Program-made: the position numbers and the translations under genes
Shown here: positions 1-49,566 of the stretch, piece after piece
Position numbering within the stretch: position 1 is the stretch's first letter
Layout: every line of letters starts with the position of its first letter
Assembly: GCA_041169145.1 (NCBI GenBank)
Contig: JBEEJO010000002.1
Coordinates: 1-50,246, forward strand
Reading direction: 5' to 3'
From: Candidatus Parcubacteria bacterium
GTDB taxonomy: Bacteria; Patescibacteriota; Minisyncoccia; UBA6257; 2-01-FULL-56-20
Length of the DNA: 50,246 bases
The notes under the pieces: generated by a model
Seen by the model: the letters and a program-made list of their open reading frames with translations, nothing else
The model's database searches: none
What the model was told of the DNA's origin: nothing

Positions 1-1436
1 TTCTTCGGTGTCCACTCATTGCGTAATTTGGCAGCTAGATCGGTGATCGGCAACTTACCAAATTCCTCGGCGGTGATTGGACCGCGAGGTCTTACGGTGC
101 CGCCGCGCATCCTACCTATACTGGGTTCAGGCTCGTAGTTCGGGTCGCATTTCCTCTCAAACGATTTTTCACACTCTGCGGCTTCTTCATTCGTTAGCTG
201 GTCGCAGATACTTGATAGAATCTGTAAGCCGTATGTTTTGTGCCATTTCTCATCTTCGGCGTCTGTGGCGCGTTTAGTGAAGTATTCAAACACTCGCCGT
301 ACATAATCCCGCTTATCCTTCTCGGATAACGCCGAGAAGCTCAATCGGAGCGCTTTTTGATATTCCGTACCAGAAATGTATTCGTGATACCGATCGGTTG
401 CGAATATCTTGAAAAACTCCTGCTTCAATTCGTCTCTGAAAAGGACCGGGCACAAACTCATCGTGAACATCCGAAGCCGCCACATGGAGCGACTATCCGG
501 GAGTTTCGCAAGGTATTTATCGAACAGTTGGCGAGCGTTCTTTGCATCATCACATTTTCCTCCGATGAGTTGCACCACCAACGTCTTTACGACTGCTGCG
601 AGCGAGCGAACATCGTCTCGATGGGAAAGATGTTCTTTTTCACCAAGTGTGAGCTCAAAGAAATCAACATCGTAGAGATGGAATGTTTCGGCAATTGTAA
701 AAACATCAGCAGCGTCTTCACGCTCACCAGTAATAGTGACACCACAAAGAGCCCGAATTGCAATCGCTAGCGCCCTCTCTTTATGTGATTCATCTACCCC
801 TACCAGTTGTCCAAACACTTTTGTTTCGCTTATGTCGTTGAAATAGAATGGATTGTCCGTTGAGTACCCCCGACTCACTTTCTTGAGCTCATCTTTTGTC
901 TGTACGGCAAGAACCGCTTCTGCAAGCACCAAAATGCCATCGTAGTCTTTCGCGCTAGATAGAGTTGCAAACATTTTTTCATACTCAAACCCCCACCGAT
1001 TGAATACCCCCATTAGAGGTATCCACCTTCCATCGCGAATCTTTATAACCATGCGAGAAAGCTGTTCTGCAGGTAGGTTGCTACAGATCCACAAAAATCT
1101 ATCCACGACTTCCGGATTAAAGTGGTCTGCTGAGATGGGAATTGCGAGTATGATATCAGCAACCTTTTTCGGTTCCTTCACCGCAACCTTCACAAGATAG
1201 TCCAACTCCGGCGTTCTGTATCCGTACTGCGTCGGATCAATGGATTTTTCTTTGATTACATCCAGGAATCCATTGTTCCAGAGCCACTCAAGCCAGCGCT
1301 CGTTAGCCTGGGTGAAAAAGTAGCGGTGCGTGTCAGGATTTGTAGAAATGATTTCTTGAATAACATTTCTGTCGACCACGGCACAGCCCGTTTCTATTAG
1401 CTCGTCTATACGCTTGTGAAGTTGGATCTGATTCAT
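1..1436 (-). CDS. Hypothetical protein of unknown function. The N-terminus is present and the C-terminus runs off the window start. It is the fourth gene of the res-mod-CHAT operon.
   Basis: It is absent from the ORF track because its stop lies beyond position 1. Hand translation of the minus strand from the ATG at 1434-1436 is open all the way to position 1 (MNQIQLHKRIDELIETGCAVVDRNVIQEIISTNPDTHRYFF ... GKLPITDLAAKLRNEWTPK, about 478 codons). I checked the frame codon by codon at 1-60 and 721-780. No competing ORF longer than 137 aa exists in 1-1440. The start is 5 nt after the CHAT stop. I recognise no catalytic motif, and the composition looks alpha-helical. Confidence 0.6.
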   Translation of the reverse strand, partial: MNQIQLHKRIDELIETGCAVVDRNVIQEIISTNPDTHRYFFTQANERWLEWLWNNGFLDVIKEKSIDPTQYGYRTPELDYLVKVAVKEPKKVADIILAIPISADHFNPEVVDRFLWICSNLPAEQLSRMVIKIRDGRWIPLMGVFNRWGFEYEKMFATLSSAKDYDGILVLAEAVLAVQTKDELKKVSRGYSTDNPFYFNDISETKVFGQLVGVDESHKERALAIAIRALCGVTITGEREDAADVFTIAETFHLYDVDFFELTLGEKEHLSHRDDVRSLAAVVKTLVVQLIGGKCDDAKNARQLFDKYLAKLPDSRSMWRLRMFTMSLCPVLFRDELKQEFFKIFATDRYHEYISGTEYQKALRLSFSALSEKDKRDYVRRVFEYFTKRATDAEDEKWHKTYGLQILSSICDQLTNEEAAECEKSFERKCDPNYEPEPSIGRMRGGTVRPRGPITAEEFGKLPITDLAAKLRNEWTPK

Positions 1437-1441
1437 TTGAG

Positions 1442-2485
1442 TTATGTTCTCGTATAGAACATCGGCACATAATCGGAATCCGGATTCTCTGATTTGTATT
1501 TTATCAGAGCGCTTTGAAAAGCAGATCGCGGGCTTTGCCCAACGGTTAGGAAGTTATAGAAGTATGAAGAAAACTTTTTCGCTGAAGGAGAGCCAGCGCC
1601 ACCGCTGTAGGCAATAACGTTATCGGAGACCCCGTCTTTTATGAGATCGAAGGCAAGGCTTGTTGATCCTGTGCCACCGCCAGAGAAACAAAAGGATAAA
1701 TAAACTACTAAAAAATATGGCTTCGGATCGATTTTGAGGAGATTGATAAAGTCATTCTTACCTATGTGCACAATTTTGTCATAAGAAGTTGCATCCTCAA
1801 GACAAAGACGCCCGTCTTCTTCCCCGTGGAGCGCTATATGAACGTATCCGAATCTGTTCCATCCTATCTCCTCTACAGCCGTTCTTGTTCCGTGTTTGAG
1901 AAAGTGAACCTCGCTAATCCGAAAGGAATCTTTATTATTTTCGGTTATCTTCTTCAAAATATCGATGATCTCTTCGTTCACATCATTCCCAATGTTCGTT
2001 TTATCAGGCATATGAGAGTGGGACATTATTACTAAACAGCGATATTGAGAACTAACACTCCCTTGTTTATTTGCTGGATGCATTATTTCTCTCAATACAC
2101 AGATTCCATTGGCGATTGATTCCCACGGTAATTCGAGAAATTCGGCGAGCTCAGACTGGATTATCAATTCGGTATCAGTATTATTGATCAGATTTTCTGT
2201 AGGTTGCACATCTAGTTTTGACATTAGCAACTCAAGAACGGGGTTTAGATTTGTTCCTGCCAATGGATTTTGAGGTGCGAGGTTCAATGATTCTGAATCT
2301 AATATCTCGATGTCTTGTATTGCCGGTTTCATCTCAGAAGAGCGTTCATATGCTTTTTTGTATTCATCAAAAGACAGACGCACTTGAGGTTTGTTGCTAG
2401 CTTCCAGTTGAAGATAGTGAGCTAGACTCACTATCCCTGCTGAATCTTTGGTTCTTTCGATTACTGAAAAACCCTTTATGAGCAT
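1442..2485 (-). CDS. CHAT-domain (caspase-like) cysteine protease, short stand-alone form
   Basis: The 347-aa ORF has the layout of the CHAT family. ELPWESI lies near the domain start. The His box is VHIALHGEEDGRLCLED. The Cys box is FLVVYLSFCFSGGGTG. The trailing segment is VIAYSGGAGSPSAKKFSSYFYNFL. It starts 7 nt after the mod stop. Confidence 0.75.
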   Translation of the reverse strand: MLIKGFSVIERTKDSAGIVSLAHYLQLEASNKPQVRLSFDEYKKAYERSSEMKPAIQDIEILDSESLNLAPQNPLAGTNLNPVLELLMSKLDVQPTENLINNTDTELIIQSELAEFLELPWESIANGICVLREIMHPANKQGSVSSQYRCLVIMSHSHMPDKTNIGNDVNEEIIDILKKITENNKDSFRISEVHFLKHGTRTAVEEIGWNRFGYVHIALHGEEDGRLCLEDATSYDKIVHIGKNDFINLLKIDPKPYFLVVYLSFCFSGGGTGSTSLAFDLIKDGVSDNVIAYSGGAGSPSAKKFSSYFYNFLTVGQSPRSAFQSALIKYKSENPDSDYVPMFYTRT

Positions 2486-2492
2486 ACCGCAA

Positions 2493-4955
2493 TCATAGCT
2501 GAACCACCCTCATCACTTCGTCGCCGTAGTGGTTAATGACTTTGACGGCGATTTTGCCGGTCTTTGGTTTAGGGAATGGACGCGAAACTGTTGAATAGAG
2601 CTCCTCCCAAGCATCTTCGTTAATATCAGCACGGAGAGCTTTTTTTAATTTTTCATAGGGTTTATCTGCGCCGAGGAAGTAGGCGTGCGTAACAAAGAAT
2701 GCTTCACCGCTATAGTTCGTATCCAGGAACCAGGCCGCGATCTCGTGCTCGGGGTCGCCGGAGCCACTTGAACGAATTTCACTTTTCACGGGATCGTATA
2801 CATCCACGCCAGCTACCTCAACCACTACTCCGTCCTTGCCCTCTTTCACCGTGACCTGTGGCTCGCCGAATGCCAAGAAAAGGTTTCCAGAACCAGTCTT
2901 CTTCAATAAATCGCCCATTGAGAGGTCGGGGTTGATTTTCACTCGCATTACTCGCAAACCATCAATTTCTGATGGGACTGAAAATGCCGATGCATCGAAT
3001 GAGGTCGCGGCAACAACGAGCAAATCAGCAAATCTTTTCGCAACCTTAGCTGCGTCGCGAATAAAATCATCATCTATACTACCAAATTCCGGACCGATAG
3101 ATATAGCTACTTTCTTGAGGCCACTTTCGGTCTTATATTCACCAGATGCTTGAATCTCCGGACCACCAGGCAAGATGTCTAGATTCACAAATTCTACACG
3201 CGCTCCTTTCTGTCCGGTTTGCACTCCGGCTTTGAGCAGATTGGAAATAACTGTCTCTGCGAATCGTTCAGATGACACCATTTCCTGCGCATCAGAAACA
3301 CGGTGTGGCGAGAGAGATTCTACCGTAAAAGGACCAGTGACGCGTACTACTTCTTTGTTCTCAAATGGTTGATCGTAGAGAATCTCTTGCTCTGGTGACT
3401 CACTATTCGCTAAAGATTTTAATGTTATATGCGGAACTGTCTTACACTCAATCCCGGCGCTAACGTTATCTTTTTCTTTGAGCTTGTAGTATGGAAACCT
3501 GGCTGTCATGAGTCGAGTTCGGGCAAGCGCTAACGCAACGCGGGAAGTGTCAATTGTAATCCAGCGGCGGCCCCATTGCTCAGCCACATATGCAGTCGTA
3601 CCCGAACCACAAGTTGGATCGAGAACGAGATCTCCAGGATCGGTTGTCATAAGAACGCATCGCTGGATAACGCTGTGTGCCGTCTGTACAACATACGTTC
3701 GCTGGACACCAATTTGCATTGATTCCCATCTATCAGTAATCGGTACCACAGGAAAATCATCAACGAAACGACGATATCTAATTGTCGAACCCATAACTTC
3801 AATTCTATTCAGCTCAGCTAAGCGCTTTAATCCCAAGACGGTTGTTTTCCAATGCGCATCACCTCTCGGAAAGTATTTCTTACCTTGGAAAACAAATTCT
3901 TGAGGTTCTGCGGATGCTCCATCTGAATATAGTGGGGCAAGTTGATAGCGTTTCCCTTCTTGTGCAATCCGCCCCGTGAACAACTCTTCTGGAGACAATC
4001 GTCGTGATCCTCCGTCTTTTAATAGATACATATCATATCTATCAAGTGTTGTATCACCAACTTCTCTCGGCCTATACAATCTGCGAAATTTTGTCATTCC
4101 TTTATCTTTTGAATACCAGATGAGGTAGTCAACGGTCGATGAAATTAAATTAGACTCAACGCCACCCGTTTTTTGGAATGAAATTTGAGTAACAAAATTA
4201 CTGGATCCAAACACTTCGTCCATTAGATTACGAATAAGATGTACATTCTCGTCGTTGATTTGCACGAAGCATGAGCCGCCATCATTTAACAGCTCACGCG
4301 CAGTCGTCAAACGATCGCGCAAGTACGCGAGGTAAGAATGAACACCAAGCTCCCACGTATCGCGGAATGCCTTTACCTGCTCTGGCTGACGAACAAAATC
4401 ATCAAGCTTGTTGTCTTTTACATCGCGCTTCCGTGTCGAAACCTGCCAGTTAGACCCGAACTTAATACCATATGGTGGATCAATGTAAATCGTCTGAACT
4501 TTGCCTCGCAGACCCTCTTTTTCCAATAGACTGTTCATCGCAAGAAGCGAGTCACCGAGAATCATACGATTCTGCCAATTCTCTTCGTGCTTGTAAAAAT
4601 CAACTGCCTTTGCCGCTTGCTGTTCCGCCGTTTCGCCAAAGAGAAGTGTTTGAGCCGATTCCTGTGCGCCGGTCTTGAGACGAGCAATAATCGCTTCGGG
4701 AGCGATTTTCTCTTGAACGTAGATTGGAACGGTCGCTACCTCAAACTCTGCACCTGCCTCCTTCTTTCCAGACCAGACAAGTTGCGGATCGAACGATGGA
4801 TCATACTCATATTTCTTCTTAATTGGTTGCTTGTCCCGAGCAGAAAGTTTCACCGATTCTTCCTGAGTCGGAATACGAACACGTTTCTCGCCGTGTTTGT
4901 ACGAAGCGACGGGTGCCGCTTTGGTTGGCTGTAACATCTTCTTTGTTCTGCGCAT
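2493..4955 (-). CDS. mod: Type III-like R-M methyltransferase subunit (N6-adenine/N4-cytosine amino-methyltransferase, beta-class)
   Basis: 820-aa ORF. The catalytic DPPY motif (IYIDPPYGIKFGSNW) precedes the SAM-binding motif (VLDPTCGSGTTAYVAEQWGRRWITID). The conserved N-terminus reads KKKYEYDPSFDPQLVWSGKKE. It sits 9 nt downstream of the Res gene. Confidence 0.9.
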   Translation of the reverse strand: MRRTKKMLQPTKAAPVASYKHGEKRVRIPTQEESVKLSARDKQPIKKKYEYDPSFDPQLVWSGKKEAGAEFEVATVPIYVQEKIAPEAIIARLKTGAQESAQTLLFGETAEQQAAKAVDFYKHEENWQNRMILGDSLLAMNSLLEKEGLRGKVQTIYIDPPYGIKFGSNWQVSTRKRDVKDNKLDDFVRQPEQVKAFRDTWELGVHSYLAYLRDRLTTARELLNDGGSCFVQINDENVHLIRNLMDEVFGSSNFVTQISFQKTGGVESNLISSTVDYLIWYSKDKGMTKFRRLYRPREVGDTTLDRYDMYLLKDGGSRRLSPEELFTGRIAQEGKRYQLAPLYSDGASAEPQEFVFQGKKYFPRGDAHWKTTVLGLKRLAELNRIEVMGSTIRYRRFVDDFPVVPITDRWESMQIGVQRTYVVQTAHSVIQRCVLMTTDPGDLVLDPTCGSGTTAYVAEQWGRRWITIDTSRVALALARTRLMTARFPYYKLKEKDNVSAGIECKTVPHITLKSLANSESPEQEILYDQPFENKEVVRVTGPFTVESLSPHRVSDAQEMVSSERFAETVISNLLKAGVQTGQKGARVEFVNLDILPGGPEIQASGEYKTESGLKKVAISIGPEFGSIDDDFIRDAAKVAKRFADLLVVAATSFDASAFSVPSEIDGLRVMRVKINPDLSMGDLLKKTGSGNLFLAFGEPQVTVKEGKDGVVVEVAGVDVYDPVKSEIRSSGSGDPEHEIAAWFLDTNYSGEAFFVTHAYFLGADKPYEKLKKALRADINEDAWEELYSTVSRPFPKPKTGKIAVKVINHYGDEVMRVVQL

Positions 4956-4964
4956 GATATGTGG

Positions 4965-7946
4965 TTATTTAACCTTAAATAACGAATTGAATCCTCCATT
5001 CATGCCCGCACGGATAAGCTGCTGGGTTTCGTGAATGTCTTGAATCTCAATAATAGCCCATACCCCGAATTTGCCAGTGTTATTCACTGCTGGAACCCAG
5101 AAATCCCGCGCCGTTTTCACTTTTGCTACCTTTTTGTCGTCCTTCTTACCAGTAACTTCAATTAGCAGGTTGATGGTCGATTTATCAGGTAATTCCACTT
5201 TCACGATAAAATCCGGAACGTAGTAATGCGCCACACCTTGATGTTCGTACGGGACCGCGAATCCAAGATTCTGATTTTTCACATACGCTAATACTTCGGG
5301 CATCTCTTCTAAACGCTTGGCTACTCCCTGTTCCCATTCTTGGGTGTCTGCTACGACATAGTTTATGTGGCTCTTCACCGTTTCCTGCACGGGCTTAGTG
5401 GTTAGAAAATCGACGTACCGCGTAGAGCCGAGCGTATCGTATGGGGCGAGGATTGGAAGGAGCTTGCGATCTGTTTGATTTGATATGTTCTCTGTTACGA
5501 TCGCCTGCTGTATCTTGCTCAATGCTCCTGAAAGGTATGCGCCGACGGAAAGGTAGCCGATGACCATTTTATCTTTCAAGACAACGTGACTTTTCACATA
5601 CTCTTCGACGATACGTTTCAGTTGTGGGTGGAGCCAGTATTTTTCTGAACCATCCGCATCCGTATAGTAGCGTTTAAGTAGTCCAACCGTGAGATATTCA
5701 ACAACCGTTCCTTCGCGTCGCTCTTTGATTTTATCTAAAGTCTCCTTTTCTTCCGCTCCGATGAATCCACCCAACGTCACCTCCGTTGGTTCATTTTCGA
5801 TAACGGTGTCCGATTCCTTGGTGAAATGTGCAGCTAATTTCACCTCATTCAACTCATAGCGATAACCTTCAACGCGCGGGAATGTTATTTCATACTGCTC
5901 GCGGTCCGATAGAGAATGAACACGGTGTATGACTTTCGGCAGCTGTGGTTCGGGGCCTCCCTTCACTTTCAAGAAGTTAAATGGCACACCATAGACTTCC
6001 GCATATTCCGGAGATAGGAGGCCATTTTCATCGGCACCATAATCCACGCGCCGAAGAGCGCGACCGACGACCTGCTCACATAAAAGCTGAGTTGAGAACG
6101 CGCGTATGCCTAAAATATGAGTGACCGTATTCACATCCCAACCCTCTGTGAGCATAGAGACGGAGACAACACATTTAATTCCTTCGCCTAACTTACCGGG
6201 TTTACCAACGGTATTCATCACCTCGCGCAGAAGTTCCTCGTCGGTCGGCTCGTCCCGTCCCGGGAAACGCTTCCGATAGTCCTTATGAAAATCGTCGATT
6301 TCTTTTACGAAGATGTTCTTGAATTCATCACTGATCTTTTCGCCGCTCTCGATTTGGGCACTATCAATAAGCAAGGTATTCGGGCGATCAAGAAACCGAA
6401 CTCCGTCTTCGTTCCGAAACACGTCTAAATGACCTTTCTCAAGTTTGATTTTCTTGCTTGCAGTTTCATATTCGTATCCTGCAATCCAGCGATAGACCAT
6501 CTCAGAAACAGTCGTGTTATTGCACACAACGATCATGACCGGTGGCATCACGGCTGGATTTACCCTCTTTTGCTTTTCGTATTCTCGATAGTACTTTTCG
6601 TAACTACCGTATAGTGACGCCAGTGCTTCTTCGAGCTTCGTCGGCAGGATTAAAACCGAGAGATCATATTTGCCAGTTTTCATTCCTTTCTTCGGGAGTT
6701 CATCCCGAACATGGAGCCACAGATTACGGAACTCGGGCTCGGCGTCCGCTCGAATGGTGTCTGATTCCACGGGCAATCGAGGAATTTTTACTACGCCGCA
6801 CTCGAGTGCATCGAGTAGAGAGAAATCATAAACCGTCCACGGGAACATGGTGCCCTCTGTATACCCCGAACCACTCAAGAAATAAGGTGTTGCAGAGAGA
6901 TCTACTATTGCATTTACCTGAATTTTCTTTGAGAGTGCCTCAAGTCCGCTAATCCACACACGAGCAGCCTTATTGTTTTCATCAGCTTCTTTCCGTTCTT
7001 CGCCCGATAATTTTTCCTCCGTAGGGCGCTCTCGGTAGCAGTGGTGCGCTTCATCATTAATAACCAAAACCCGAGGCTTGTTCAGAACACTTTTGAACGC
7101 CCGGTTAACCATTGCACTGGGCGTTTCTTTTATTGCATCTTCCTTGATAAGCCCCGCGGCTTTCATAACCGCACCGATTTGGAATCGTGGATTTTGCCGC
7201 TGTTCAAGCTGATGAAAATTCGTGATGAAAACAGTCGCCTGTTGAAGTGCCTCGAAGTCTTGGTATGAGACGATATTCCGTTGCAAATAATAGTTATGCG
7301 GATCGTTTGGTAGAAGAACATTCAAACGATCACGAATTGTTATCCCCGGAGTGACAATAACGAATGCATCTGTGAATCGCGTGTCTTGCGGGTAACGAAT
7401 CTTGTTCAGCGTATTGTAAGCTATGACCATTGCCATAACGACAGTCTTTCCGGAACCGGTCGCCATCTTAAACGCCAATCGGTATAGCCCAGGATTCGCT
7501 TCTGTATTCGCTTTTTTGATGCCGTTAATAATCCAACTCTCGCCGGTTTTTTCAGCAACCTCATTCACGTACATCAGAGTTTCCAGTGCTTCGATCTGGG
7601 AAAAGAACAGCTTATTCTCCCGAGATTCGTCACTCCAATATCCGAGAAGATCGCGAGATGTTTTTGTGAGTCCTGCATAACCGGACTGGCGCCATTCTTT
7701 CACTTTGGCGCGAACCTTATTGATAAACTCATTCTCCTTCTGGAGTTCGCTCCCATACGCCCCCTCAGCAAGATTAATATCTAACTGATCCTGTTTCGTT
7801 TTTGCCCGTGGAGCTGGTATATAAAAAGTGCTCGGTCGGCGCTCCTCCAGTACTTCGTTTGTTAGCCCACGCTCGTCGGATTTGAAGTGACGCGTCGGCT
7901 CAACGTAAGGGGAATTGAGGATCGGATTGTCGATTTGTTCCGGCAT
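4965..7946 (-). CDS. res: Type III-like restriction enzyme Res subunit (SF2 DEAH helicase with a C-terminal PD-(D/E)xK-like nuclease)
   Basis: 993-aa ORF. Walker A is MATGSGKT, DEAH box is VINDEAHHC, motif III is LSATPYF, and motif VI is TEGWDVN...QVVGRALRR. The C-terminal nuclease-like segment reads YVPDFIVKV...LLIEVTGKK. The N-terminus is NPILNSPYVEPTRHF. Confidence 0.9.
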   Translation of the reverse strand: MPEQIDNPILNSPYVEPTRHFKSDERGLTNEVLEERRPSTFYIPAPRAKTKQDQLDINLAEGAYGSELQKENEFINKVRAKVKEWRQSGYAGLTKTSRDLLGYWSDESRENKLFFSQIEALETLMYVNEVAEKTGESWIINGIKKANTEANPGLYRLAFKMATGSGKTVVMAMVIAYNTLNKIRYPQDTRFTDAFVIVTPGITIRDRLNVLLPNDPHNYYLQRNIVSYQDFEALQQATVFITNFHQLEQRQNPRFQIGAVMKAAGLIKEDAIKETPSAMVNRAFKSVLNKPRVLVINDEAHHCYRERPTEEKLSGEERKEADENNKAARVWISGLEALSKKIQVNAIVDLSATPYFLSGSGYTEGTMFPWTVYDFSLLDALECGVVKIPRLPVESDTIRADAEPEFRNLWLHVRDELPKKGMKTGKYDLSVLILPTKLEEALASLYGSYEKYYREYEKQKRVNPAVMPPVMIVVCNNTTVSEMVYRWIAGYEYETASKKIKLEKGHLDVFRNEDGVRFLDRPNTLLIDSAQIESGEKISDEFKNIFVKEIDDFHKDYRKRFPGRDEPTDEELLREVMNTVGKPGKLGEGIKCVVSVSMLTEGWDVNTVTHILGIRAFSTQLLCEQVVGRALRRVDYGADENGLLSPEYAEVYGVPFNFLKVKGGPEPQLPKVIHRVHSLSDREQYEITFPRVEGYRYELNEVKLAAHFTKESDTVIENEPTEVTLGGFIGAEEKETLDKIKERREGTVVEYLTVGLLKRYYTDADGSEKYWLHPQLKRIVEEYVKSHVVLKDKMVIGYLSVGAYLSGALSKIQQAIVTENISNQTDRKLLPILAPYDTLGSTRYVDFLTTKPVQETVKSHINYVVADTQEWEQGVAKRLEEMPEVLAYVKNQNLGFAVPYEHQGVAHYYVPDFIVKVELPDKSTINLLIEVTGKKDDKKVAKVKTARDFWVPAVNNTGKFGVWAIIEIQDIHETQQLIRAGMNGGFNSLFKVK

Positions 7947-8039
7947 AATAATTCAAACACATCATCCCTCAAAAAGGGTCGTTTGTCTAGGAATATCAAT
8001 GCTCCGCAGACTTGCTTTGATTTCAACTTCGCGTCATCA

Positions 8040-8230
8040 TTTGAATACAACTGAATAGGGCTCAGCCCAGGCCTAAACCAGGCGGTTCCACCGCCCGGCA
8101 TGGCTCCTGAAAACCTGTGATAGATACTGAACCCCGCGTTCAGCAAACTGTCACAGGTCATATCCCGAAAGGGGTATGGGGCGTAAGCCCTAGCTGATGC
8201 GGGGTTCTGTGCGTCAAGCCCCGCCATACT
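8040..8230 (+). ncRNA. Candidate structured RNA or 5' leader of unknown class; the strand is uncertain
   Basis: This is a GC-rich block inside an otherwise AT-rich 298-nt divergent intergenic region. The plus-strand hairpins are as follows. 8078-8085/8091-8098 has one A-C mismatch. 8113-8120/8151-8158 encloses 8127-8132/8138-8143. 8160-8166/8171-8177 is capped by a GAAA loop. 8178-8182/8187-8191 is capped by a GUAA loop. 8199-8204/8219-8224 is the last. An alternative 9-bp pairing exists between 8129-8137 (GAACCCCGC) and 8199-8207 (GCGGGGTTC). The two GNRA loops favour the plus strand. Confidence 0.35.
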
Positions 8231-8244
8231 CATCATAAAAATAT

Positions 8245-9351
8245 ATGGCCATAATCATCTCCAAGAACGGCAAGAATGCGAAGCGCGTGGACGAATCGAA
8301 GTTCGAATACGAAGATCACCTTCAGCAATACATCTACGACAACCCCGACAGCATTCCTCTCTATGACATCAAGGAGGATATCCGCCTCCTTATCCTCTCT
8401 CGCGAGTTCCAAACGGAGAGCGGTCCTATCGACGCGCTCGGTATAGATAAGGACGGTGAGATCTATCTCATCGAGACGAAACTGTATAAAAATCCAGACA
8501 AGCGACTCGTCGTCGCCCAGGTTTTGGATTACGGCGCGGCTATCTGGCTGAGCAAGCGTGGCTACGAAGAAATCGTCGCCTCTCTCGAAGAAGCGGTACG
8601 CAGAAATTTCAAAAAGGGCTTGCGCGAGAAAATATCCGAATTTTATGGAATCGGCGAAGTGGAGACCGATACGCTTTTGGAAAACTTCAAAAACAATCTG
8701 AATAAGGGGGTCTACAAATTCGTGGTCCTGATGGATAAGCTCCACGACCGGCTGAAAGACCTCATCCTTTTCATAAACGAAAACAGCAAGTTCGATATCT
8801 ACGCGGTGGAGCTCGAATTCTACAAGCACGAGGATTATGAGATAGTGATTCCCAAGATATTTGGAGCTGAAGTCAAAAAAGATCTGGGAGTGACAAAAAG
8901 CGCTGGGAAACGGTGGGATTGGGATTTGTTCAAACATCGCTTGCAGGAGTTCGGTGAAGAAGAGGTGCGAACGGCAGAGCAAATCATCGAATGGGCCGGA
9001 AAAAATGGCATTGAAATAGAATGGAGCAACAGCCAACGTGGCGGCTTCTTCCTGTGCTACTATCCCGAAGGCAAAAAGGGATTCTATCCCTTCGGCGTGA
9101 CGGGTGACGCCAGGGTCTCGTGGAACGTCCCTCATGCAGGGGGCAAAAGTCCCGCACCGTTCGACAAGCTTGAAAAACGAGCGGAGATATTGAAGCGCCT
9201 TCAATCGGTTAAGGGTGCAGCGATTGATTTAGGCAACGTAGACGGGTTCAACGGAATGAAGTTGCCCTTGCGTGAGCTTGCGGACGAAGGTGCCCGCCGC
9301 GAATTCTTCGCGGTCTGTCTGTGGATCAAAAAAGTGTTGGAGACCGAATAA
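8245..9351 (+). CDS. PD-(D/E)xK (NucS/RecB-like) nuclease-fold protein with a C-terminal domain of unknown function
   Basis: 368-aa ORF. The core GPIDALGIDKDGEIYLIETKLYKNPDKRLVVAQVLDYGAAIW shows the D...ExK...QxxxY arrangement typical of NucS/Cas4/RecB-type nucleases. The roughly 323-aa antisense ORF (8233-9204) is low-complexity and was rejected. Confidence 0.7.
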   Translation: MAIIISKNGKNAKRVDESKFEYEDHLQQYIYDNPDSIPLYDIKEDIRLLILSREFQTESGPIDALGIDKDGEIYLIETKLYKNPDKRLVVAQVLDYGAAIWLSKRGYEEIVASLEEAVRRNFKKGLREKISEFYGIGEVETDTLLENFKNNLNKGVYKFVVLMDKLHDRLKDLILFINENSKFDIYAVELEFYKHEDYEIVIPKIFGAEVKKDLGVTKSAGKRWDWDLFKHRLQEFGEEEVRTAEQIIEWAGKNGIEIEWSNSQRGGFFLCYYPEGKKGFYPFGVTGDARVSWNVPHAGGKSPAPFDKLEKRAEILKRLQSVKGAAIDLGNVDGFNGMKLPLRELADEGARREFFAVCLWIKKVLETE

Positions 9352-9355
9352 ATCA

Positions 9356-9655
9356 ATGACCGAAGACGAAACCAGGCTGAAGGAATTTATAGACGGCAAC
9401 ACCTGGATTTTTGCCAAGACATATGCGAAAACTGCCCCGCACGAGTACGTGGTGTACGATCGTCTAGATACGGAGGGTCGCAAGGAGTACGACTGGTTCA
9501 TGGGACAAATCGAGGAAAATGGAGTTGATGAGAAGTTCTACAACACAACGTTCAGGTACCTCTATTTCGGCGGCATGAAATATTGGGTTCACGACACGAA
9601 GGAAAGAGAAGGAGGCGTATTGAACAGGGATCTGGCGACGAGCAAATACGGATAG
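9356..9655 (+). CDS. Small conserved hypothetical protein (99 aa)
   Basis: The ATG at 9356 lies 4 nt after the nuclease stop. The sequence reads MTEDETRLKEFIDGNTWIFAKTYAKTAPHEYVVYDRLD...KYWVHD. From memory, the WIFAKT..PHEY motif recurs in small proteins of mobile elements, but I cannot name a family. The track start at 9272 would overlap the nuclease by 80 nt and is less likely. Confidence 0.5.
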   Translation: MTEDETRLKEFIDGNTWIFAKTYAKTAPHEYVVYDRLDTEGRKEYDWFMGQIEENGVDEKFYNTTFRYLYFGGMKYWVHDTKEREGGVLNRDLATSKYG

Positions 9656-9744
9656 CGCCCCTCTGCTTCTCGCGGCTACCAAGGCTTTTGGGAGCATTTA
9701 GGGCACTCTGGACGCCCCTCGGGGTTCGCGTCATCCATTGGGGT

Positions 9745-11079
9745 ATGACCAACCAAACTATGGGGTCCAATGGGGCTGGGACCCAACAAGCAAGCCAGCT
9801 CCCACCAAAGGTCAGATACCTTTTATACGCCCGGAAGAGCAGCGAGTCGGAGGAACGCCAAGTCCTTTCCATCGATTCGCAGGTGAAAGAGATGATGCAA
9901 CTCGCCGAGCGCGAGGGGCTTGAGATCGCGGAGGTCCGGAGGGAAAGCCACTCGGCCAAAGCCACCGGTCAGCGCCCCGTGTTCAATGAGATTCTGAACG
10001 ATGTCAGGTCGGGCAAGTTCAACGGTATTCTCACCTGGGCACCGGACCGCATCGCGAGGAACGCCGGGGACCTGGGAGCGGTGGTGGACTTGATGGACCA
10101 GAAACTGCTTCTGGAGATACGGACGTTCGGCCAACGCTTCACCGATTCGCCGAACGAGAAATTTCTCCTCATGATCTTGGGGTCGCAGGCGAAACTGGAG
10201 AACGACGCGAGGGGCGTGAATGTGAAACGCGGTCTGCGGACAAGGGTCGAGATGGGACTCTGGCCGGGCATGGCCCCGCTCGGCTACCTCAACCAAAAGA
10301 TGATGGACAAGAAGTGCCAGATCGCCGTGGATCCGGCGCGCGCGCCAATCGTGAAACAGATGTTCGAGAAAGTGGCGCATGAAAAATGGTCGGGTCGGAG
10401 GGTATACAACTGGCTGAGGTTCGAGCTGAACTTCCACACGCGAGGCAACAAGCCCCTCACGCTCTCGGGTATCTACCGAATGCTCACGATGCCGATTTAC
10501 TACGGGATGTTCGAGTTTCCGCGAAAGAGCGGCAACTGGTACCAAGGCAAACATAAGCCGCTCATCACCGAAGAACTTTTCCAGCAGGTGCAAGCACAGC
10601 TCAAACGGGATCAGATTGTGCGCGAGAGCAAGGAGTTTGCCTTCACAAAATTATTCACCTGCGGACTTTGCGGATCGGGCATATCAGCCGAGGAAAAATT
10701 CAAGGACCTCAAGGGCGGCGGCGTGAACCGCTATGTCTACTATGGATGTTCGAGGGCGAGAGACCGTAACTGCAAGAACAAATACATCCGCGAAGAAGAG
10801 CTGATCGATGAGTTGATCAAGATTCTCGACAAGGTGAACATCAACGAACTCGGCATGAAGATGAAGCTCGAAGACGAGATTCGACGATTCAACAAATTAC
10901 AGAAACTCATGAACCGGAATAACGGAAAGCAGGCGATCGAGGAAACCGATGTGAATATCAGGGAATACGCTAAATATCTCTTGCGGGAAGGGAGCGCCTC
11001 GGAAAAGCGCGAGTTGTTGGCGAATCTGCGAAGCAGGCTGATCTACCAGAACAAAACACTGCGCCTGGTCGAGGAGTAG
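9745..11079 (+). CDS. Large serine recombinase (resolvase/invertase catalytic domain, recombinase domain and zinc ribbon)
   Basis: The N-terminal catalytic region is VRYLLYARKSSESEERQVLSIDSQ...WAPDRIARN. A recombinase domain follows, then a Cys cluster (CGLCGSG...YYGCS...NC) and a coiled-coil tail. I prefer the start at ATG 9745 (MTNQTMGS) over the track start at 9583, whose first 54 residues are Arg-rich and look noncoding. Confidence 0.9.
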   Translation: MTNQTMGSNGAGTQQASQLPPKVRYLLYARKSSESEERQVLSIDSQVKEMMQLAEREGLEIAEVRRESHSAKATGQRPVFNEILNDVRSGKFNGILTWAPDRIARNAGDLGAVVDLMDQKLLLEIRTFGQRFTDSPNEKFLLMILGSQAKLENDARGVNVKRGLRTRVEMGLWPGMAPLGYLNQKMMDKKCQIAVDPARAPIVKQMFEKVAHEKWSGRRVYNWLRFELNFHTRGNKPLTLSGIYRMLTMPIYYGMFEFPRKSGNWYQGKHKPLITEELFQQVQAQLKRDQIVRESKEFAFTKLFTCGLCGSGISAEEKFKDLKGGGVNRYVYYGCSRARDRNCKNKYIREEELIDELIKILDKVNINELGMKMKLEDEIRRFNKLQKLMNRNNGKQAIEETDVNIREYAKYLLREGSASEKRELLANLRSRLIYQNKTLRLVEE

Positions 11080-11119: not shown

Positions 11120-11194
11120 CACTTCTCTACCGAAGCACTCGGGTCACAGCTTGACCTCAATTACTCGGGTTTATCCGATAGAAAAATGTCACTG

Positions 11195-11281
11195 CGGAGA
11201 GGGAGGGATTCGAACCCTCGATACCATTTCTGGTATACAGTCTTTCCAGGACTGCCAATTCAACCACTCTTGCACCTCTCC
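11195..11281 (-). tRNA. tRNA-Ser, anticodon GGA
   Basis: Hand-folded cloverleaf. The acceptor stem is GGAGAGG/CCTCTCC with discriminator G. The D stem is 3 bp with a GG-containing loop. The anticodon stem is CAGTC/GACTG with loop CTGGAAA. The long variable arm is ATACC-AGAAA-GGTAT. The T arm is GAGGG-TTCGAAT-CCCTC. It is 87 nt long and CCA is not encoded. Confidence 0.9.
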
Positions 11282-11286
11282 CCTTG

Positions 11287-12024
11287 TTACCGCACTATCG
11301 TACCCTTGAACTCCTTGCCGTTCAAGAGCGCGTCCAGATTCTTCAGCTCGCGGCCGTCCACTACAATTGCGGCGAGCCCCTTCTCTTCGGCGAATTTCGC
11401 CGCGATGGGATCCATTGGCGCGTGGAGACCCGGGCTCCATTTCTTCGGGATCAGGTTGCGATACGCCTTCCACGAAAGTTCACGGAGGGGTTTTGCGTTC
11501 GTGTGCGTTGCGTGATCCTTATCGTACACATACGCGGGCTTCCCCGCCACGATGACCTCCTGCGCGCCGAAATCGTACGCCAGGACCGCCGCGATGTAGT
11601 CCGTTGACCAGCCCGGCCGCCAGCCCGCCGCGACCGTTACGGAGCGGCGCAGACGCTTCACTCTCCCGCGCTCGTCAATCACCACCGGATCGGCGATGTC
11701 CCGGAACATGGTACGCACAAGGTGCGCATTGAGACGCGTTGCGTGAATGCCGAGCCAGTCTTTGTCGTCGTTTGTGATGCCACGAATGCGCGCCGCGGCT
11801 TCCTGAAACCGCCGGGCGAGCTGTCCGCCGCCGACCACGAGCACAAATCGTTTCCCCTCGCGCACATGCCGGCGCAGGAACCGGTCAAACCGGCGAAGGA
11901 ACGCCGTGTCGATCTCTCCGGGACGTACGTGTTCATCTTTCCCGCGGATGAATGCCGGGTACACGATAGAACCGCCGAGCGTCACGATGATGGTTCGGTT
12001 GAAGCGATACCTCATATGATTCAT
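11287..12024 (-). CDS. pyrH: UMP kinase-like amino-acid-kinase family protein (archaeal-type PyrH)
   Basis: 245 aa. Diagnostic segments are IIVTLGGSIV, VLVVGGGQLARRF and TVAAGWRPGWSTDYIAAVLA, with a length typical of short UMP kinases. It overlaps the upstream gene by 4 nt (ATGA). Confidence 0.7.
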   Translation of the reverse strand: MNHMRYRFNRTIIVTLGGSIVYPAFIRGKDEHVRPGEIDTAFLRRFDRFLRRHVREGKRFVLVVGGGQLARRFQEAAARIRGITNDDKDWLGIHATRLNAHLVRTMFRDIADPVVIDERGRVKRLRRSVTVAAGWRPGWSTDYIAAVLAYDFGAQEVIVAGKPAYVYDKDHATHTNAKPLRELSWKAYRNLIPKKWSPGLHAPMDPIAAKFAEEKGLAAIVVDGRELKNLDALLNGKEFKGTIVR

Positions 12025-12896
12025 GCCGTGGAGGCGGGGTTGCCAATTGCCGGAGACGATTCATCCGGCGCCGGACGAATGTTCGCGATGAGCACCACGA
12101 TAAGGAGCAGGGTGGGGATGAATGGAGCATCCGATCCCGGAAGCCCCCCGGATATGACAAGGAGCAGGAGCGCTACCGGCGTCCACGCATGAAGCGCCAT
12201 CTGGTAGGCGGTCCGATACGACACCGGCATGCGCCGCATGCGGGCGATAAGCCACGCGAGCAGTCCTCCGAAGAGCAAGTAGGCGAGCGTGAACGTCCAC
12301 AACACAAGAAAGACGAACCATGTGCCGAAAACAACGAGCGGAGCGATCCACCGGCCGACGGCCTGCAGATCTTCGTTCAAGCCCCTCACGAACGATCGGT
12401 CTATCGTTACGTTCGGAAAATCGGAAAGCCATTCTATCTGTATACGGCCGCCCGGTTCTTTTCCGGTGATGATATTCTGTTTCGTAACAAGGATATACGT
12501 GTCATGCGCAGACCACGCTTCCACGGACGCCTGTGCCGCCGTATCAATGACGAGCAGATTTGCGAGCGCATGTCCGCCGTTCTTTTCCGTCTCCGTTTTG
12601 AGCTCATCCGGCAGAGGGAGAACATACGGCTCCGTGACGTTCGTGCTCGCCTCGCCGTTCTGTATCTTTATCGCAAGCTCTTCGGGAAAATGGGACACGA
12701 ACGCCTGCCCTGCCCGATCAATGAACTGCGTGATAAGCGGCAGCGCGCGAAACGAGGCGGTCGCGGAAAACACGATGGCAAGCGCCACGCCGAGCGAGTA
12801 AAAATACTTGAGCGAGAACGAGAACCGCTGCGTGGCGAGCGAGCGATAGAACGCCGGCGAGTAGATGCTTGCGCGAATGGTGTGCCAAAGGTTCAT
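12021..12896 (-). CDS. Integral membrane protein, DUF1189-like
   Basis: 291 aa. The N-terminus reads IYSPAFYRSL...FSLKYFYSLGVALAIVF. A soluble middle section is followed by several C-terminal transmembrane helices. The family assignment is from memory. Confidence 0.55.
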   Translation of the reverse strand: MNLWHTIRASIYSPAFYRSLATQRFSFSLKYFYSLGVALAIVFSATASFRALPLITQFIDRAGQAFVSHFPEELAIKIQNGEASTNVTEPYVLPLPDELKTETEKNGGHALANLLVIDTAAQASVEAWSAHDTYILVTKQNIITGKEPGGRIQIEWLSDFPNVTIDRSFVRGLNEDLQAVGRWIAPLVVFGTWFVFLVLWTFTLAYLLFGGLLAWLIARMRRMPVSYRTAYQMALHAWTPVALLLLVISGGLPGSDAPFIPTLLLIVVLIANIRPAPDESSPAIGNPASTA

Positions 12897-35294: not shown

Positions 35295-36164
35295 TCAAGT
35301 ATCGTGCTTGACCTTGCCGGACAAAAACTTCTTCACCGGCCATAGGAGCGCATGCACACGCTTGCGGATGCCGAACGGAATGACCGCATAACACAGCTGG
35401 AGCACATGGATAAAAAAACCATGCCAGAATCCCGGATACTTCCCGCGGTAGCGCCACAGGACCCGGAACGCTTTCATTGTGTGCGGCAGCATGTCTTTCG
35501 CCGAACGATTTTTCCCCGTTGAGGTGTAATACGAGAAATATGCCGGGAAATTATAGAGCTTCCCCGCAAGGCCCATTTTGAGGGAAAAATCCCAATCCTC
35601 ATTGAAGTTCAGCTCGCGGTCAAACCCGCCGACGCGGCGCAAGACATCTGCACGGTAGATGCCGGTCGAGGACGCGATGGGATTCGTGACAAGCGCCGTA
35701 CGATGAATGGATCCGTCCGTTTCTTCCTTGAAATAGCGGTAGAGCTCTTTGCCGTCCGGGTCAACAACGATCATTCCCCCGCCCGCGCCGACGTAATCCG
35801 GATGCTCTTCAAGGAACGCAACTTGTTTCGCAAGCTTGTCGTTGCCGATCCACGCATCGTCCGAATCAACGCGGGCGATGTATTTCCCCCGTGCGGCCTC
35901 TACGCCGCGATTGAACGTGTACGGAATGCCGCTATTCTTGTCGTTCTCCAGATACACGATGCGCGGATCTCGTTTCGCATACTCCGCAACGACAGTGCGC
36001 GTATCGTCCGTCGAACCGTCGTTCACCACGATAAGCTCGAGTTCGCGAAGTGTTTGACCGAGAACGCTCTCAATGGACTTGCCGACAAATCGCGCCTGAT
36101 TCCACGTCGGCATGATAACCGATACGACAGGTGTCGCAGAGTTGTTCTTTGGCGCGGTATTCAT
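35295..36164 (-). CDS. Glycosyltransferase family 2
   Basis: It contains VSVIMPTWNQARFVGKSIESVLGQT...LIVVNDGSTDDT...RVDSDD. Confidence 0.85.
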   Translation of the reverse strand: MNTAPKNNSATPVVSVIMPTWNQARFVGKSIESVLGQTLRELELIVVNDGSTDDTRTVVAEYAKRDPRIVYLENDKNSGIPYTFNRGVEAARGKYIARVDSDDAWIGNDKLAKQVAFLEEHPDYVGAGGGMIVVDPDGKELYRYFKEETDGSIHRTALVTNPIASSTGIYRADVLRRVGGFDRELNFNEDWDFSLKMGLAGKLYNFPAYFSYYTSTGKNRSAKDMLPHTMKAFRVLWRYRGKYPGFWHGFFIHVLQLCYAVIPFGIRKRVHALLWPVKKFLSGKVKHDT

Positions 36165-37138
36165 TCGTCCAGTTCAGAAAGCCGGAGTGCCCGGCGGCGA
36201 TAGTATATGTTCGCAAGTGTCTTTTGCACGAACCCTGCCGGCAGAATAGCGAACGGCAGCCATACAAACCAGCCCAATAACGCACCGAGTGGATATTCTG
36301 CGAACGCCCCCAGGATATGCGGCTTCGCCTCCGCCGTGCGCGCGTTCATGAGATACGCAAGCCCGAGGTTCAGCCGATAGCGCCTCCGGTTTTCGCGCAT
36401 ATGAACGCGGACGCGTTCCGCCGGGGCCATGTTCGTATTCAACCGTTCCAGAACTTCCAGCATCGTCTCTTTCACTTTCGGCTGGCTTTCCAATCCCTGC
36501 AGGTTCGCCGTCTTCCGCATGCGGAGCTTTGCCAGGCGCTTCGGCAAAAATTCGAACCGGGCACCGCCGTGCGCAAGACGCAGCCAGAATTCCAGATCCT
36601 CGGACCGTTTGAGGTTCTCATCGAACATCCCGAACCGCTCAATGGTCGAACGCCGGAGCACAACCGAGAGCGGCGCGATGAAATTCATGCGCAGGAGATG
36701 CGGGAGCACATCGTCGCCGGAATAATATTCATAATTCAGCCGCAAAAGCGTCGATTCGCCGTCCCAGAAGTGGAACAGATTGCAGTACGAAACGTCGCAG
36801 GCAGGATGCTCGGTGAGGTACGCGACTTGCTCGGCGACCTTCTCCGGCAGAAATATATCATCCGAATCCAACAGCGCGATGAGCTCGCCGCGGCTTGCTG
36901 TGATGCCGGTATTCCGCGCACCCGAAAGTCCTTTGTTCGCCTGATAAATGTACGCGATCTTTTTTGCACGGACATACGGCTCGAGAACTGCTTTGGTGTC
37001 ATCCGTCGAGCCATCGTCAACGACGATGACCTCGCAGTTCGGATACGTCTGTGCGAGCGCCGAATCCACCGCCTCACACACGTACGATGCGGTGTTCCAG
37101 GACGGAATGATAATGGAAACAAGCGGTGGTTTTCCCAT
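36161..37138 (-). CDS. Glycosyltransferase family 2
   Basis: It contains VSIIIPSWNTASYVCEAVDSALAQTYPNCEVIVVDDGSTDDT...LLDSDD. Confidence 0.85.
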   Translation of the reverse strand: MGKPPLVSIIIPSWNTASYVCEAVDSALAQTYPNCEVIVVDDGSTDDTKAVLEPYVRAKKIAYIYQANKGLSGARNTGITASRGELIALLDSDDIFLPEKVAEQVAYLTEHPACDVSYCNLFHFWDGESTLLRLNYEYYSGDDVLPHLLRMNFIAPLSVVLRRSTIERFGMFDENLKRSEDLEFWLRLAHGGARFEFLPKRLAKLRMRKTANLQGLESQPKVKETMLEVLERLNTNMAPAERVRVHMRENRRRYRLNLGLAYLMNARTAEAKPHILGAFAEYPLGALLGWFVWLPFAILPAGFVQKTLANIYYRRRALRLSELDE

Positions 37139-37145
37139 GGTCGAG

Positions 37146-38195
37146 TTATCGGGCGCTCAGATCGTTCAGAATATCTCGGAAGCGCTGTTCATAGGTGTGC
37201 TCGCGGATCGTTCGTCCGTAGGCCGCCGCGGCAATGCGCTTCCGCTCATCCGGCTGGTCAAGATACATACGCACCTTGTCCACGAGCTCCGCATTCGTCC
37301 GATAGAACACCATTTCGCGGTCCGGTTCGTAATACCGTTCCACGCCTTCGGTATAACCGGAAATCACGCACGCCCGGCACGCGGCAAGTTCAAAAATGCG
37401 CGCGTGGATATGCGGCTCGGCGAAATGCCACCACGCCTCCATGTTTCGCATCAGATGAAGGTCAGGCACGATCCGATTCCGGGATTTCATGAAGAAAAGC
37501 CGCCCCAAAACCCAAGGATTGAACCGCGACGGCCGGTCGTTTATATTCAGCGTCATTTTACTGCGGCCCACGATATTTATCATTTCCTCCCGAGAAACGC
37601 GCCCGGCAGGCCATCCAAGGCCAAATGCTTCCACGCGGATCCCAGCACTCAAGAGTGTTTGTATCACTTTCTCGCGCGGAGGTTTCCATTGTCCGATGAA
37701 ACTCACGTCAATGTCGGGATCCCTTCCGATCTCCACCGGCCAGTAGGCGTTCGGGTTTGCCGCCCATTGCGACAAGAATACATTCGTTATTCCGGCTCTT
37801 CGATACCAATCGACGGCTTGCGGCGCCGTCGTCACCGCAAGCGTGAAATGCGGCGCGTACAATCGCGAATAGTTCCAAAATCGCCAGTAATCATCCGCGA
37901 ACCAAGCAACGGTTTTCGTACCGGTCTCGTTGCGGATCCGGTCCAGGACCGCCGGGTCGCACTCATCGGTATACATAAACACAAAGAGCGCGTCCGGCCG
38001 CTCCCGTCGTGCGATATGGAGCAGTTCTTCATTCCACATCCGCCGGCCCATTGTAAGAATACGGTCAAAGGGATGCTCAACGACCGAAACGTCCGGCATA
38101 CGCTGCAATGCCCCAAGAAAATTCACCCGCTCGAAGCTTGGTGACCGTTTCGGGTCATAATTTTCCGCTTCAATACCGGCATAGAGAATCTTCAT
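37146..38195 (-). CDS. CgeB-like glycosyltransferase (GT1-related)
   Basis: 349 aa. The C-terminal segment reads RIFELAACRACVISGYTEGVERYYEPDREMVFYRTNAELVDKVRMYL..PDERKRIAAAAYGRTIREHTYEQR. The resemblance to the CgeB/DUF3880-type family is from memory. Confidence 0.6.
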   Translation of the reverse strand: MKILYAGIEAENYDPKRSPSFERVNFLGALQRMPDVSVVEHPFDRILTMGRRMWNEELLHIARRERPDALFVFMYTDECDPAVLDRIRNETGTKTVAWFADDYWRFWNYSRLYAPHFTLAVTTAPQAVDWYRRAGITNVFLSQWAANPNAYWPVEIGRDPDIDVSFIGQWKPPREKVIQTLLSAGIRVEAFGLGWPAGRVSREEMINIVGRSKMTLNINDRPSRFNPWVLGRLFFMKSRNRIVPDLHLMRNMEAWWHFAEPHIHARIFELAACRACVISGYTEGVERYYEPDREMVFYRTNAELVDKVRMYLDQPDERKRIAAAAYGRTIREHTYEQRFRDILNDLSAR

Positions 38196-39394: not shown

Positions 39395-39449
39395 TGTGTA
39401 AAAGATATATCAAGAATTCACTCTGCTCGTACGTGCTCTTTGGTTTTCA

Positions 39450-40412: not shown

Positions 40413-40434
40413 TGTCCCATCATTATACCAGCCA

Positions 40435-41249: not shown

Positions 41250-41261
41250 GCAAGGATTTCT

Positions 41262-42164: not shown

Positions 42165-42318
42165 ATCCTATCTTGATTTAAAGCATCATAATGAAACACG
42201 CCTTTTCGGAGACTGTCAATCGCAACGACAACGAGTATCGATGGTGCACTTGCCAAGAATTGTGACAGGTATCAAGATAATCGGGACCGGACAATAAAAT
42301 TGGATCCACACTGAAAGC

Positions 42319-43899: not shown

Positions 43900-44010
43900 A
43901 GCGCTATAAACGTACCGTTTGAACGGACACGGAACGGCGAACGGCTTGCGGCTCCTTATTGAAGACGGATGTCGAGCTGTGGTATGGTCTAATCGCGGAA
44001 ATTCAATACG

Positions 44011-47559: not shown

Positions 47560-47575
47560 ATAATGAAGCGTGGCG

Positions 47576-48721: not shown

Positions 48722-48729
48722 GGCTACTT

Positions 48730-49395: not shown

Positions 49396-49566
49396 GATAT
49401 TCGTTTTCTGCCACGAGTGTTTCATGTGAACAATAATATTTATTCGCTTATTTCCCGAGTGGCTACCTGGACAATTAATCAATAAGACCGCGAGGAAAAG
49501 TGGTGGGCATGCTCACATCGATGGGCGACGGTTGTGGAAATACCCGTCGTCCGCTTTGTTTATTAT

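Follow-up and report, generated by a model that had tools for sequence, protein, structure and literature searches.

Defence-associated sirtuin 1 (DSR1), which was reportedly described by Gao and colleagues in 2020, is the characterized relative of the system considered here. It has been characterized only in the form of one SIR2 protein, whose activity causes a transient loss of NAD+ (Garb et al., bioRxiv 10.1101/2021.12.14.472415). In DSR2 and in the STAND proteins known as Avs, a long alpha-solenoid or repeat domain serves as the sensor: it binds conserved structural proteins of phages and activates an effector at the N terminus. A protease with a caspase-like fold and a His-Cys dyad is the output of the immune sensor in SAVED-CHAT (8tl0), in the TPR-CHAT protein of the type III-E Craspase, in Borvo, and in protease-gasdermin operons. 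In PrrC-EcoprrI, PARIS, EcoR22I, and Ronin, a suicide-type effector is joined to a restriction-modification (R-M) operon, which results in layered immunity (PMC12707154; bioRxiv 10.1101/2023.04.06.535777); the coupling of immunity to suicide beside R-M genes is a concept of Makarova et al. (2012, Biol Direct 7:40), as cited in PMC12707154. Here we analyzed a stretch of 50,246 nucleotides (nt) from Candidatus Parcubacteria bacterium (assembly GCA_041169145.1, contig JBEEJO010000002.1, positions 1 to 50,246), called the window in its full length, in which an R-M gene pair is followed by genes for a CHAT/caspase-like cysteine protease and a large helical solenoid protein. The last two form a module that is more general than first proposed, and less a single four-gene machine. 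We think that it is probably an autonomous, abortive-type second layer of defence, composed of a DSR1-like sensor with swappable effectors and preferentially co-transcribed with restriction enzymes.

Four consecutive open reading frames (ORFs) on the minus strand fill positions 1-7946 of the window. The first in the operon is res (4965-7946; 993 amino acids, aa), a superfamily 2 (SF2) helicase with GSGKT and DEAH motifs and a C-terminal PD-(D/E)XK-like nuclease. It is followed by mod (2493-4955; 820 aa), a beta-class N6/N4 DNA methyltransferase with the motifs DPPY and then DPTCGSGTT, by the CHAT protease gene (1442-2485; 347 aa), the predicted effector, and by the solenoid gene (1-1436), the predicted sensor or regulator, of which the window edge leaves an N-terminal part of at least 478 aa. 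The intergenic gaps are 9, 7, and 5 nt. Terminator-like sites within the block numbered 7 compared with 8.0 expected from shuffling, and promoter-like sites 9 compared with 11.3 expected. The original prediction of four closely spaced, co-oriented genes in an operon-like arrangement thus holds in its coordinates and gaps.

Comparison with related loci (numbered L in the following; homologous proteins are numbered P) showed that the evolutionary unit is the pair of CHAT and solenoid genes, and not the set of four. The pairing is obligate: CHAT is followed by the solenoid in all 17 CHAT-type loci with downstream sequence, with the two genes usually overlapping or no more than 8 nt apart. The solenoid family, with more than 340 proteins, is far larger than the CHAT family. 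It is present in 62 species-representative genomes, mostly from Patescibacteria/candidate phyla and also from Caldilineaceae, Nitrospirales, Omnitrophota, and some Gammaproteobacteria. Three types of first component accompany it, namely a domain of ~180 aa that we call effector A (41 cases), CHAT (six), and a protein with an N-terminal transmembrane segment (six). None of the three matches any PADLOC model.

Effector A is either encoded by a separate gene (for example, L044:9435-9956) or fused to the N terminus of the solenoid (for example, L004:9389-10009), giving proteins of ~1170-1210 aa; these cases lie within loci L004-L065. The domain is all helical, has an invariant Arg and an invariant His in 'AHSLRE' and 'AHH' motifs, and weakly matches the Pfam family pP_pnuc_1 ('pPIWI-associating nuclease', E 7e-4). 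It looks like an uncharacterized effector family, and on this similarity would be a nuclease. As a separate observation, an FRG domain is fused to the effector A domain in a 374-aa protein adjoining the module in L037 (8933-10057). The third partner type, of ~205-280 aa, combines an N-terminal transmembrane helix with a low-complexity linker and a helical C-terminal domain, and had no family match (L009:9390-10004, L011:9387-10004, L018:3110-3769, L024:9285-10004, L029:9382-10023, L048:9153-10004, and L082:7276-8004).

On a rough, unbootstrapped neighbor-joining tree of the solenoids, the partner types are interleaved among close relatives, for example, L005 (effector A) with L007 (CHAT), L001 and L066 (both CHAT) with L025 (effector A), and L024 (transmembrane partner) with L039 (effector A). 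Effectors have therefore been exchanged repeatedly. As CHAT can be exchanged for other first components, its most fitting role is that of an effector controlled by the solenoid. Together with SIR2, which holds the same N-terminal position in DSR1, this would give a well-known design in which the sensor stays constant and the effectors are interchangeable.

The solenoid ORF had been described as unrecognizable in the original prediction. Based on PADLOC, a structural model, and Foldseek, it can now be identified as a DSR1-like alpha-solenoid. Its 478 aa align throughout with the first half of a 999-aa solenoid in L003, at 47% identity, and it thus appears to be the N-terminal 478 aa of an all-alpha solenoid of ~1000 aa that is related to the non-SIR2 part of DSR1. 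The sole PADLOC family matched by the solenoid is Dsr1 (PDLC04166). Residues 7-88 of the window protein align to positions 294-385 of the Dsr1 profile (E 5.6e-4), and the C-terminal half of full-length solenoids aligns to positions 734-1197 (E 1e-19 to 6e-11). The match is collinear and leaves only the SIR2 part (profile positions 1-293) unmatched; a SIR2 domain was matched by neither the solenoid nor the CHAT protein nor the fused forms of ~1200 aa. Full-length solenoids and fused forms matched no Pfam family. A single-sequence search of the Protein Data Bank (PDB) with the window fragment gave no match, and neither did PDB searches with profiles of the solenoid and effector A families.

A model of the solenoid homologue P0011 (predicted local distance difference test score, pLDDT, 88.8) is all helical and has no enzyme-like domain. 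Foldseek matched it to CAND1, FANCD2/I, karyopherins, and Avs4, a sensor that binds the phage portal. Judged from this model, the solenoid seems to resemble protein-binding scaffolds. In contrast to DSR2 and Avs, it has no NTPase domain and no detectable sequence similarity to them, and the likeness is one of general repeat fold only.

The module and DSR1 have in common a large helical body, which is collinear in the two, an effector at the N-terminal side, and a defence setting. Whereas DSR1 is one polypeptide with a SIR2 NADase, the module comprises two genes, lacks SIR2, and carries a separate CHAT protein, replaced elsewhere by a nuclease-like or membrane component. Moreover, its solenoid family is found mainly in candidate-phyla bacteria, and its members are often attached to the end of R-M operons. 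Lacking SIR2 and consisting of two genes, the module is outside DSR1 sensu stricto.

The prediction of a CHAT protease stood as regards the fold and an invariant His-Cys dyad, but the Pfam match itself is below threshold (CHAT, PF12770; 17.4 bits with a cut-off of 24, E 0.003). Identification of the 347-aa protein therefore required structure and conserved catalytic residues. H216, H220-G221, and C266 are invariant in an alignment of 11 CHAT homologues, and the homologues P0002, P0009, and P0010 carry precomputed PF12770 matches. In an AlphaFold model built from the homologue alignment (pLDDT 78; predicted template modeling score, pTM, 0.80), the His and the Cys end adjacent core strands (214-221 and 258-266). 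The best Foldseek match of this model was the SAVED-CHAT protease 8tl0 of type III CRISPR (E 2.6e-9), followed by matches to the CHAT domain of DdvA, separase (E 1e-4), and caspases (E 5e-4). The protein is thus modeled with a CHAT/caspase-haemoglobinase fold and an intact His-Cys dyad, and is predicted to be proteolytic. A PDB search with the single sequence gave no match, and a search with the family profile gave a marginal match to 8tl0 only. The exact sequence is not on record elsewhere. In an exhaustive profile search, ~65 sequence clusters were assigned to the family at E<=1e-30; with few exceptions, these are standalone proteins of 340-390 aa.

The window protein differs from the CHAT proteases of SAVED-CHAT, Craspase, Borvo, and the gasdermin operons in being a minimal, standalone protein of ~350 aa. 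The module contains no SAVED, TPR, CRISPR, cyclic-nucleotide, or gasdermin component, there are no CRISPR genes nearby, and the CHAT protein matched no PADLOC model, including that of Borvo. By these profile matches and partner domains, the module is neither Borvo nor Craspase nor SAVED-CHAT. In the open-access literature, we found no paper linking a CHAT domain to R-M in phage defence, and a link between CHAT and DSR1 only in one review table. The PADLOC-DB release used dates from 2023, and a recent description of the module could lie outside both this database and open-access text.

The original prediction left room for the association with R-M genes to be unique to this contig. Instead, in many unrelated lineages, R-M genes of the same orientation immediately precede homologues of the CHAT and solenoid genes. 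Co-oriented R-M genes are present no more than three genes upstream of the module in 21 of the 55 informative species-level loci, including all three effector types, and in 7 of the 12 informative CHAT loci. The gap between the last R-M gene and the module is mostly 15 nt or less (7 nt from mod in the window). The upstream systems are of type I (HsdM-HsdS in the CHAT loci L001, L073/74, and L076), type III (Mod-Res in the CHAT loci L002 and L068; also L011, L024, L031, L050, L079, L080, and L083), type IIG (Eco57I/TaqI_C in the CHAT locus L020; also L005, L016, L040, L043, and L084), and type ISP (L023 and L065), and in the window there is a BPTD_3080 pair. Pairs of a PLD-SNF2 helicase and an Eco57I-like methyltransferase were also among the upstream R-M genes. 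In the five CHAT loci without R-M genes, an AbiEii fragment, a Schlafen-like helicase, a small nuclease-like ORF, or divergent genes are located upstream. Searches with the window solenoid fragment mostly returned fragmented gene calls; two of these, on long contigs, sat behind R-M genes.

The association is directional. Among the 104 proteins encoded by the two genes upstream, Pfam identified N6_Mtase (11), Eco57I (11), N6_N4_Mtase (7), ResIII (7), MmeI_Mtase (7), TaqI_C (6), and Type_ISP_C (2), and no DNA methyltransferase family was among the 25 most frequent families listed, of 77, for the 114 proteins encoded by the two genes downstream. With local hidden Markov models (HMMs), R-M genes were found at 18 of 55 positions immediately upstream and 9 of 49 second upstream positions, compared with 0 of 58 and 1 of 56 at the corresponding downstream positions, amounting to 27 of 104 upstream and 1 of 114 downstream neighbors. 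Fisher's test of upstream versus downstream R-M genes gave p = 3e-7 for the Pfam counts and p = 7e-9 for the local HMMs.

The link to R-M genes is nevertheless a preference and not a requirement. The original prediction had treated the four genes as one system, but the conserved unit has two genes, and 34 of the 55 species-level loci (~60%) and 5 of the 12 CHAT loci have no adjacent R-M genes. Close relatives among the solenoids follow unrelated R-M classes or none. Given these two observations, the module is independent of any particular restriction enzyme. Since the partner can be of type I, IIG, ISP, III, or BPTD_3080, the mechanism specific to Res/Mod and CHAT that had been suggested is unlikely. 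The accompanying idea of an abortive-type second layer remains the best reading, and we infer it from homology and context.

The same distribution bears on whether the solenoid might stand guard over restriction. Following the logic of PrrC and PARIS, it would monitor the restriction enzyme, or sense anti-restriction proteins or the loss of a cofactor, the protease would fire only once restriction had been disabled, and the four genes would constitute one integrated system. The co-oriented, near-zero-gap position behind R-M genes in ~38% of loci and their near absence downstream are in line with this proposal. So is the nature of the linked classes, all of which are large enzymes that combine adenine-methyltransferase-type modification with a nuclease, and several of which translocate on DNA. 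It is restriction enzymes of these classes that phage anti-restriction proteins usually target. Suicide coupled to R-M has precedents in PrrC, PARIS, EcoR22I, and Ronin (bioRxiv 10.1101/2023.04.06.535777; PMC12707154). However, the majority of loci have no R-M genes next to the module, the positions of close solenoids behind unrelated R-M types or none argue against contact with a particular R-M protein, and DSR1 works as a single gene without R-M (bioRxiv 10.1101/2021.12.14.472415). The proteins of the precedents are unrelated to those of the module (ABC-ATPase/anticodon nuclease, AriAB). In addition, PrrC belongs to a single type Ic system; the module, in contrast, is found behind five R-M classes and often behind none, and, its R-M association being non-obligate, it is not a PrrC-type guardian. 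Overall, we regard surveillance of the restriction enzyme by the solenoid as unlikely. A more general form, in which the solenoid would respond to a cue common to the failure of type I, IIG, ISP, and III-like systems, such as an anti-restriction DNA mimic or the destruction of a cofactor, by unleashing proteolysis or, in sister modules, nuclease or membrane effectors, appears doubtful as well.

It is also conceivable that the module and the R-M genes are merely located together and act independently, the 3' ends of R-M operons being permissive landing sites that offer a ready promoter and where nothing is disrupted. This would accommodate the high diversity of R-M and effector types, the many loci without R-M genes, and the presence of further defence genes nearby. 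Serine recombinases, tRNA genes, and LOOT RNA genes flank the cassettes, suggesting frequent movement. Loose clustering, however, predicts R-M genes on both sides and both strands, contrary to the strong upstream bias observed here, and the fact that the module was acquired repeatedly and independently behind R-M genes of five classes points to selection for co-expression. Co-location without any functional coupling thus seems distinctly improbable to us. The observed arrangement is most simply explained if modules were captured repeatedly at the 3' ends of R-M operons and are co-transcribed with them.

In the autonomous second layer that we favor, Res/Mod, as a BPTD_3080-type pair, would attack unmodified DNA and provide the first barrier. 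The solenoid would bind an infection-specific ligand which, judging from DSR2 and Avs, is most likely to be a protein of the phage. The CHAT protease may be docked on the highly conserved N-terminal part of the solenoid, where sister proteins have fused effectors, and ligand binding would relieve its inhibition. The freed protease would then cleave host or phage proteins and halt phage production, possibly at the cost of the cell. In this way, the protease module could act as a second layer against phages that escape restriction, and co-transcription would keep both layers together. In this scheme, we infer which component is the sensor and which the effector, what triggers the system, what the protease cleaves, that the outcome is abortive, and that the genes are co-transcribed.

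Several points weigh against this interpretation. The link to DSR1 derives from one HMM, with an E-value of 5.6e-4 for the window fragment and 1e-19 at best, and helical-repeat proteins can give inflated HMM scores. The window copy of the solenoid is incomplete at the window edge, so that 478 of ~1000 aa were read, and genes of the related loci were predicted simply as the longest ORFs. The seeds of the local HMMs were taken from upstream genes, for which the Pfam scan serves as the unbiased control, and the loci without R-M genes outnumber those with them. Unlike in Craspase/Csx30 or protease/gasdermin systems, there is no conserved substrate gene by the module. Defence activity of the module is suggested by homology and context only.

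The last point leaves some room for a role outside defence, either as an addiction- or toxin-type stabilizer of the island or as a protease with a scaffold in a housekeeping or regulatory function. CHAT domains are also known from anti-sigma factors, including DdvA, whose CHAT domain was among the Foldseek matches. The CHAT protein of the window, however, has neither a sigma factor nor a transmembrane segment. The patchy spread of the module across phyla, its setting in a low-GC island, its neighborhoods rich in R-M and other defence genes, and the exchange of the first component for nuclease-like, membrane, and, in DSR1, SIR2 modules all argue against such a role, which we consider very improbable.

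The R-M pair of the window deserves a separate comment. It had been described as type III-like, which is a fair name as long as the reversed gene order and the distinct Res family are kept in mind. As in type III R-M systems of the EcoP15I kind, a beta-class Mod methyltransferase is paired with a Res SF2 helicase-nuclease, and Mod agrees with the type III profile (PADLOC MTase_III PDLC03632, E 2.6e-210; Pfam N6_N4_Mtase, E 4e-29). By contrast, the order in the window is res and then mod, and Res is from the separate BPTD_3080 family. It scored 1096 bits against the NCBIfam equivalog model NF046055 'BPTD_3080 family restriction endonuclease' (cut-off 800), but only 12.5 bits against the canonical type III model PRK15483 (cut-off 564), and its matches to PADLOC REase_III are local only. 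Pfam identified the ResIII helicase core (E 1.2e-11) and, weakly, Tn7_TnsA-like_N and RE_endonuc at the C terminus.

The island context of the block was confirmed. GC content is 0.44-0.47 across positions 1-8000, compared with 0.53-0.61 across 9-38 kb, and the block is followed by a large serine recombinase (9583-11079, plus strand; Pfam Resolvase, Recombinase, and Zn_ribbon_recom) and a tRNA-Ser(GGA) gene (11194-11281, minus strand; ARAGORN). A serine recombinase adjoins the module in L002 and L077 as well. The sole intergenic space at the four-gene block is the 298 nt upstream of res. Two promoter-like hexamer pairs immediately upstream of res (7945-7989, minus strand), each a 9/12 sigma-70-like match in a region whose total of such matches is not above chance, could possibly be the operon promoter. 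Between the LOOT RNA described below and the recombinase, a divergent ORF of 368 aa (8245-9351, plus strand) weakly matches NucS_C, a PD-(D/E)XK family (E 0.0014), and could be a further nuclease-type defence gene or a gene for island mobility. The ORFs at 7862-8236, which overlaps the start of res, and at 8233-9204 had no family match and were set aside as non-genes. A second low-GC stretch is present at 38-43 kb of the window (GC 0.46-0.49). The translations of 35300-49500 read by eye as glycosyltransferases, a nucleotidyl-transferase, a UDP-sugar dehydrogenase, an epimerase, and aminotransferases, and this region is apparently an ordinary gene cluster for surface polysaccharides.

A full-length LOOT small RNA is located at 8070-8190 on the plus strand (Rfam RF03000; 77.4 bits, gathering score 46.4, E 1.5e-13), 124 nt upstream of res and on the opposite strand. 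LOOT was found in two further CHAT-type loci (L070:1658-1779, minus strand; L067:12537-12678, plus strand), and a covariance model built from these three copies identified it in 15 of 84 sources, that is, in 12 more loci (for example, L031:13013-13143, L026:13125-13245, L048:8654-8776, L022:8694-8818, and L016:129-254). In 6 of 10 GTDB matches, LOOT lies within ~100 nt of the edge of the tight co-oriented run containing the module, on either side; the distance is 57-97 nt in five of these matches, and LOOT overlaps the edge in L025. The adjacent ORFs are mutually unrelated, and we rejected the possibility that LOOT serves a single gene family as a leader. The RNA may indicate a hotspot of integration or the boundary of an island or cassette, and could take part in the regulation or mobility of the cassette.

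A small gene of ~100-250 aa often begins no more than 10 nt after the solenoid gene, in about 25 loci (for example, L066:4281-4829, L067:11898-12443, L001:6745-7314, and L020:13056-13712, the last a PD-(D/E)XK nuclease). These genes do not constitute one family, being related only in pairs, and perhaps encode accessory components that vary between loci. We considered whether a third gene, for example one for a protease substrate, is conserved downstream and rejected this, as BLAST and phmmer clusters of the downstream neighbors were only pairs and triplets. The module was also rejected as a typical phage gene, with only 4 loci from viral contigs, and tblastn of the solenoid against plasmid records gave no match. 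Other defence neighbors in the related loci comprise GmrSD, DruA, TIR, AbiEii, and the Schlafen-like helicase. In L002, a ThsB-like TIR gene is followed by a Peptidase_C14 (caspase) gene (11218-12578) 3 kb downstream of the module, past the serine recombinase; this is a candidate for a further protease-containing defence pair in the same island. In L040, a 1069-aa protein with an FRG domain and TPR repeats (5678-8887) is encoded between a type IIG enzyme and the module.

If confirmed, the module described here would represent an undescribed branch of DSR1 sensors that has a caspase-like protease, a small nuclease-like domain, or a membrane protein in place of the NADase, and would provide a natural experiment in which one sensor scaffold drives different killing devices. 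A minimal, standalone CHAT protein would join the short list of protease-based outputs of bacterial immunity. A suicide-type module would have become attached to restriction enzymes of five classes, repeatedly in evolution and in a strongly directional manner, and the long-discussed idea of immunity coupled to suicide would become testable in a compact operon. Should the solenoid after all guard restriction, the principle of PrrC would extend to a large, effector-swapping family that is dominant in candidate-phyla bacteria. These bacteria are largely without CRISPR, and their immune repertoire is poorly known; if confirmed, the module would constitute a major accessory defence in them.

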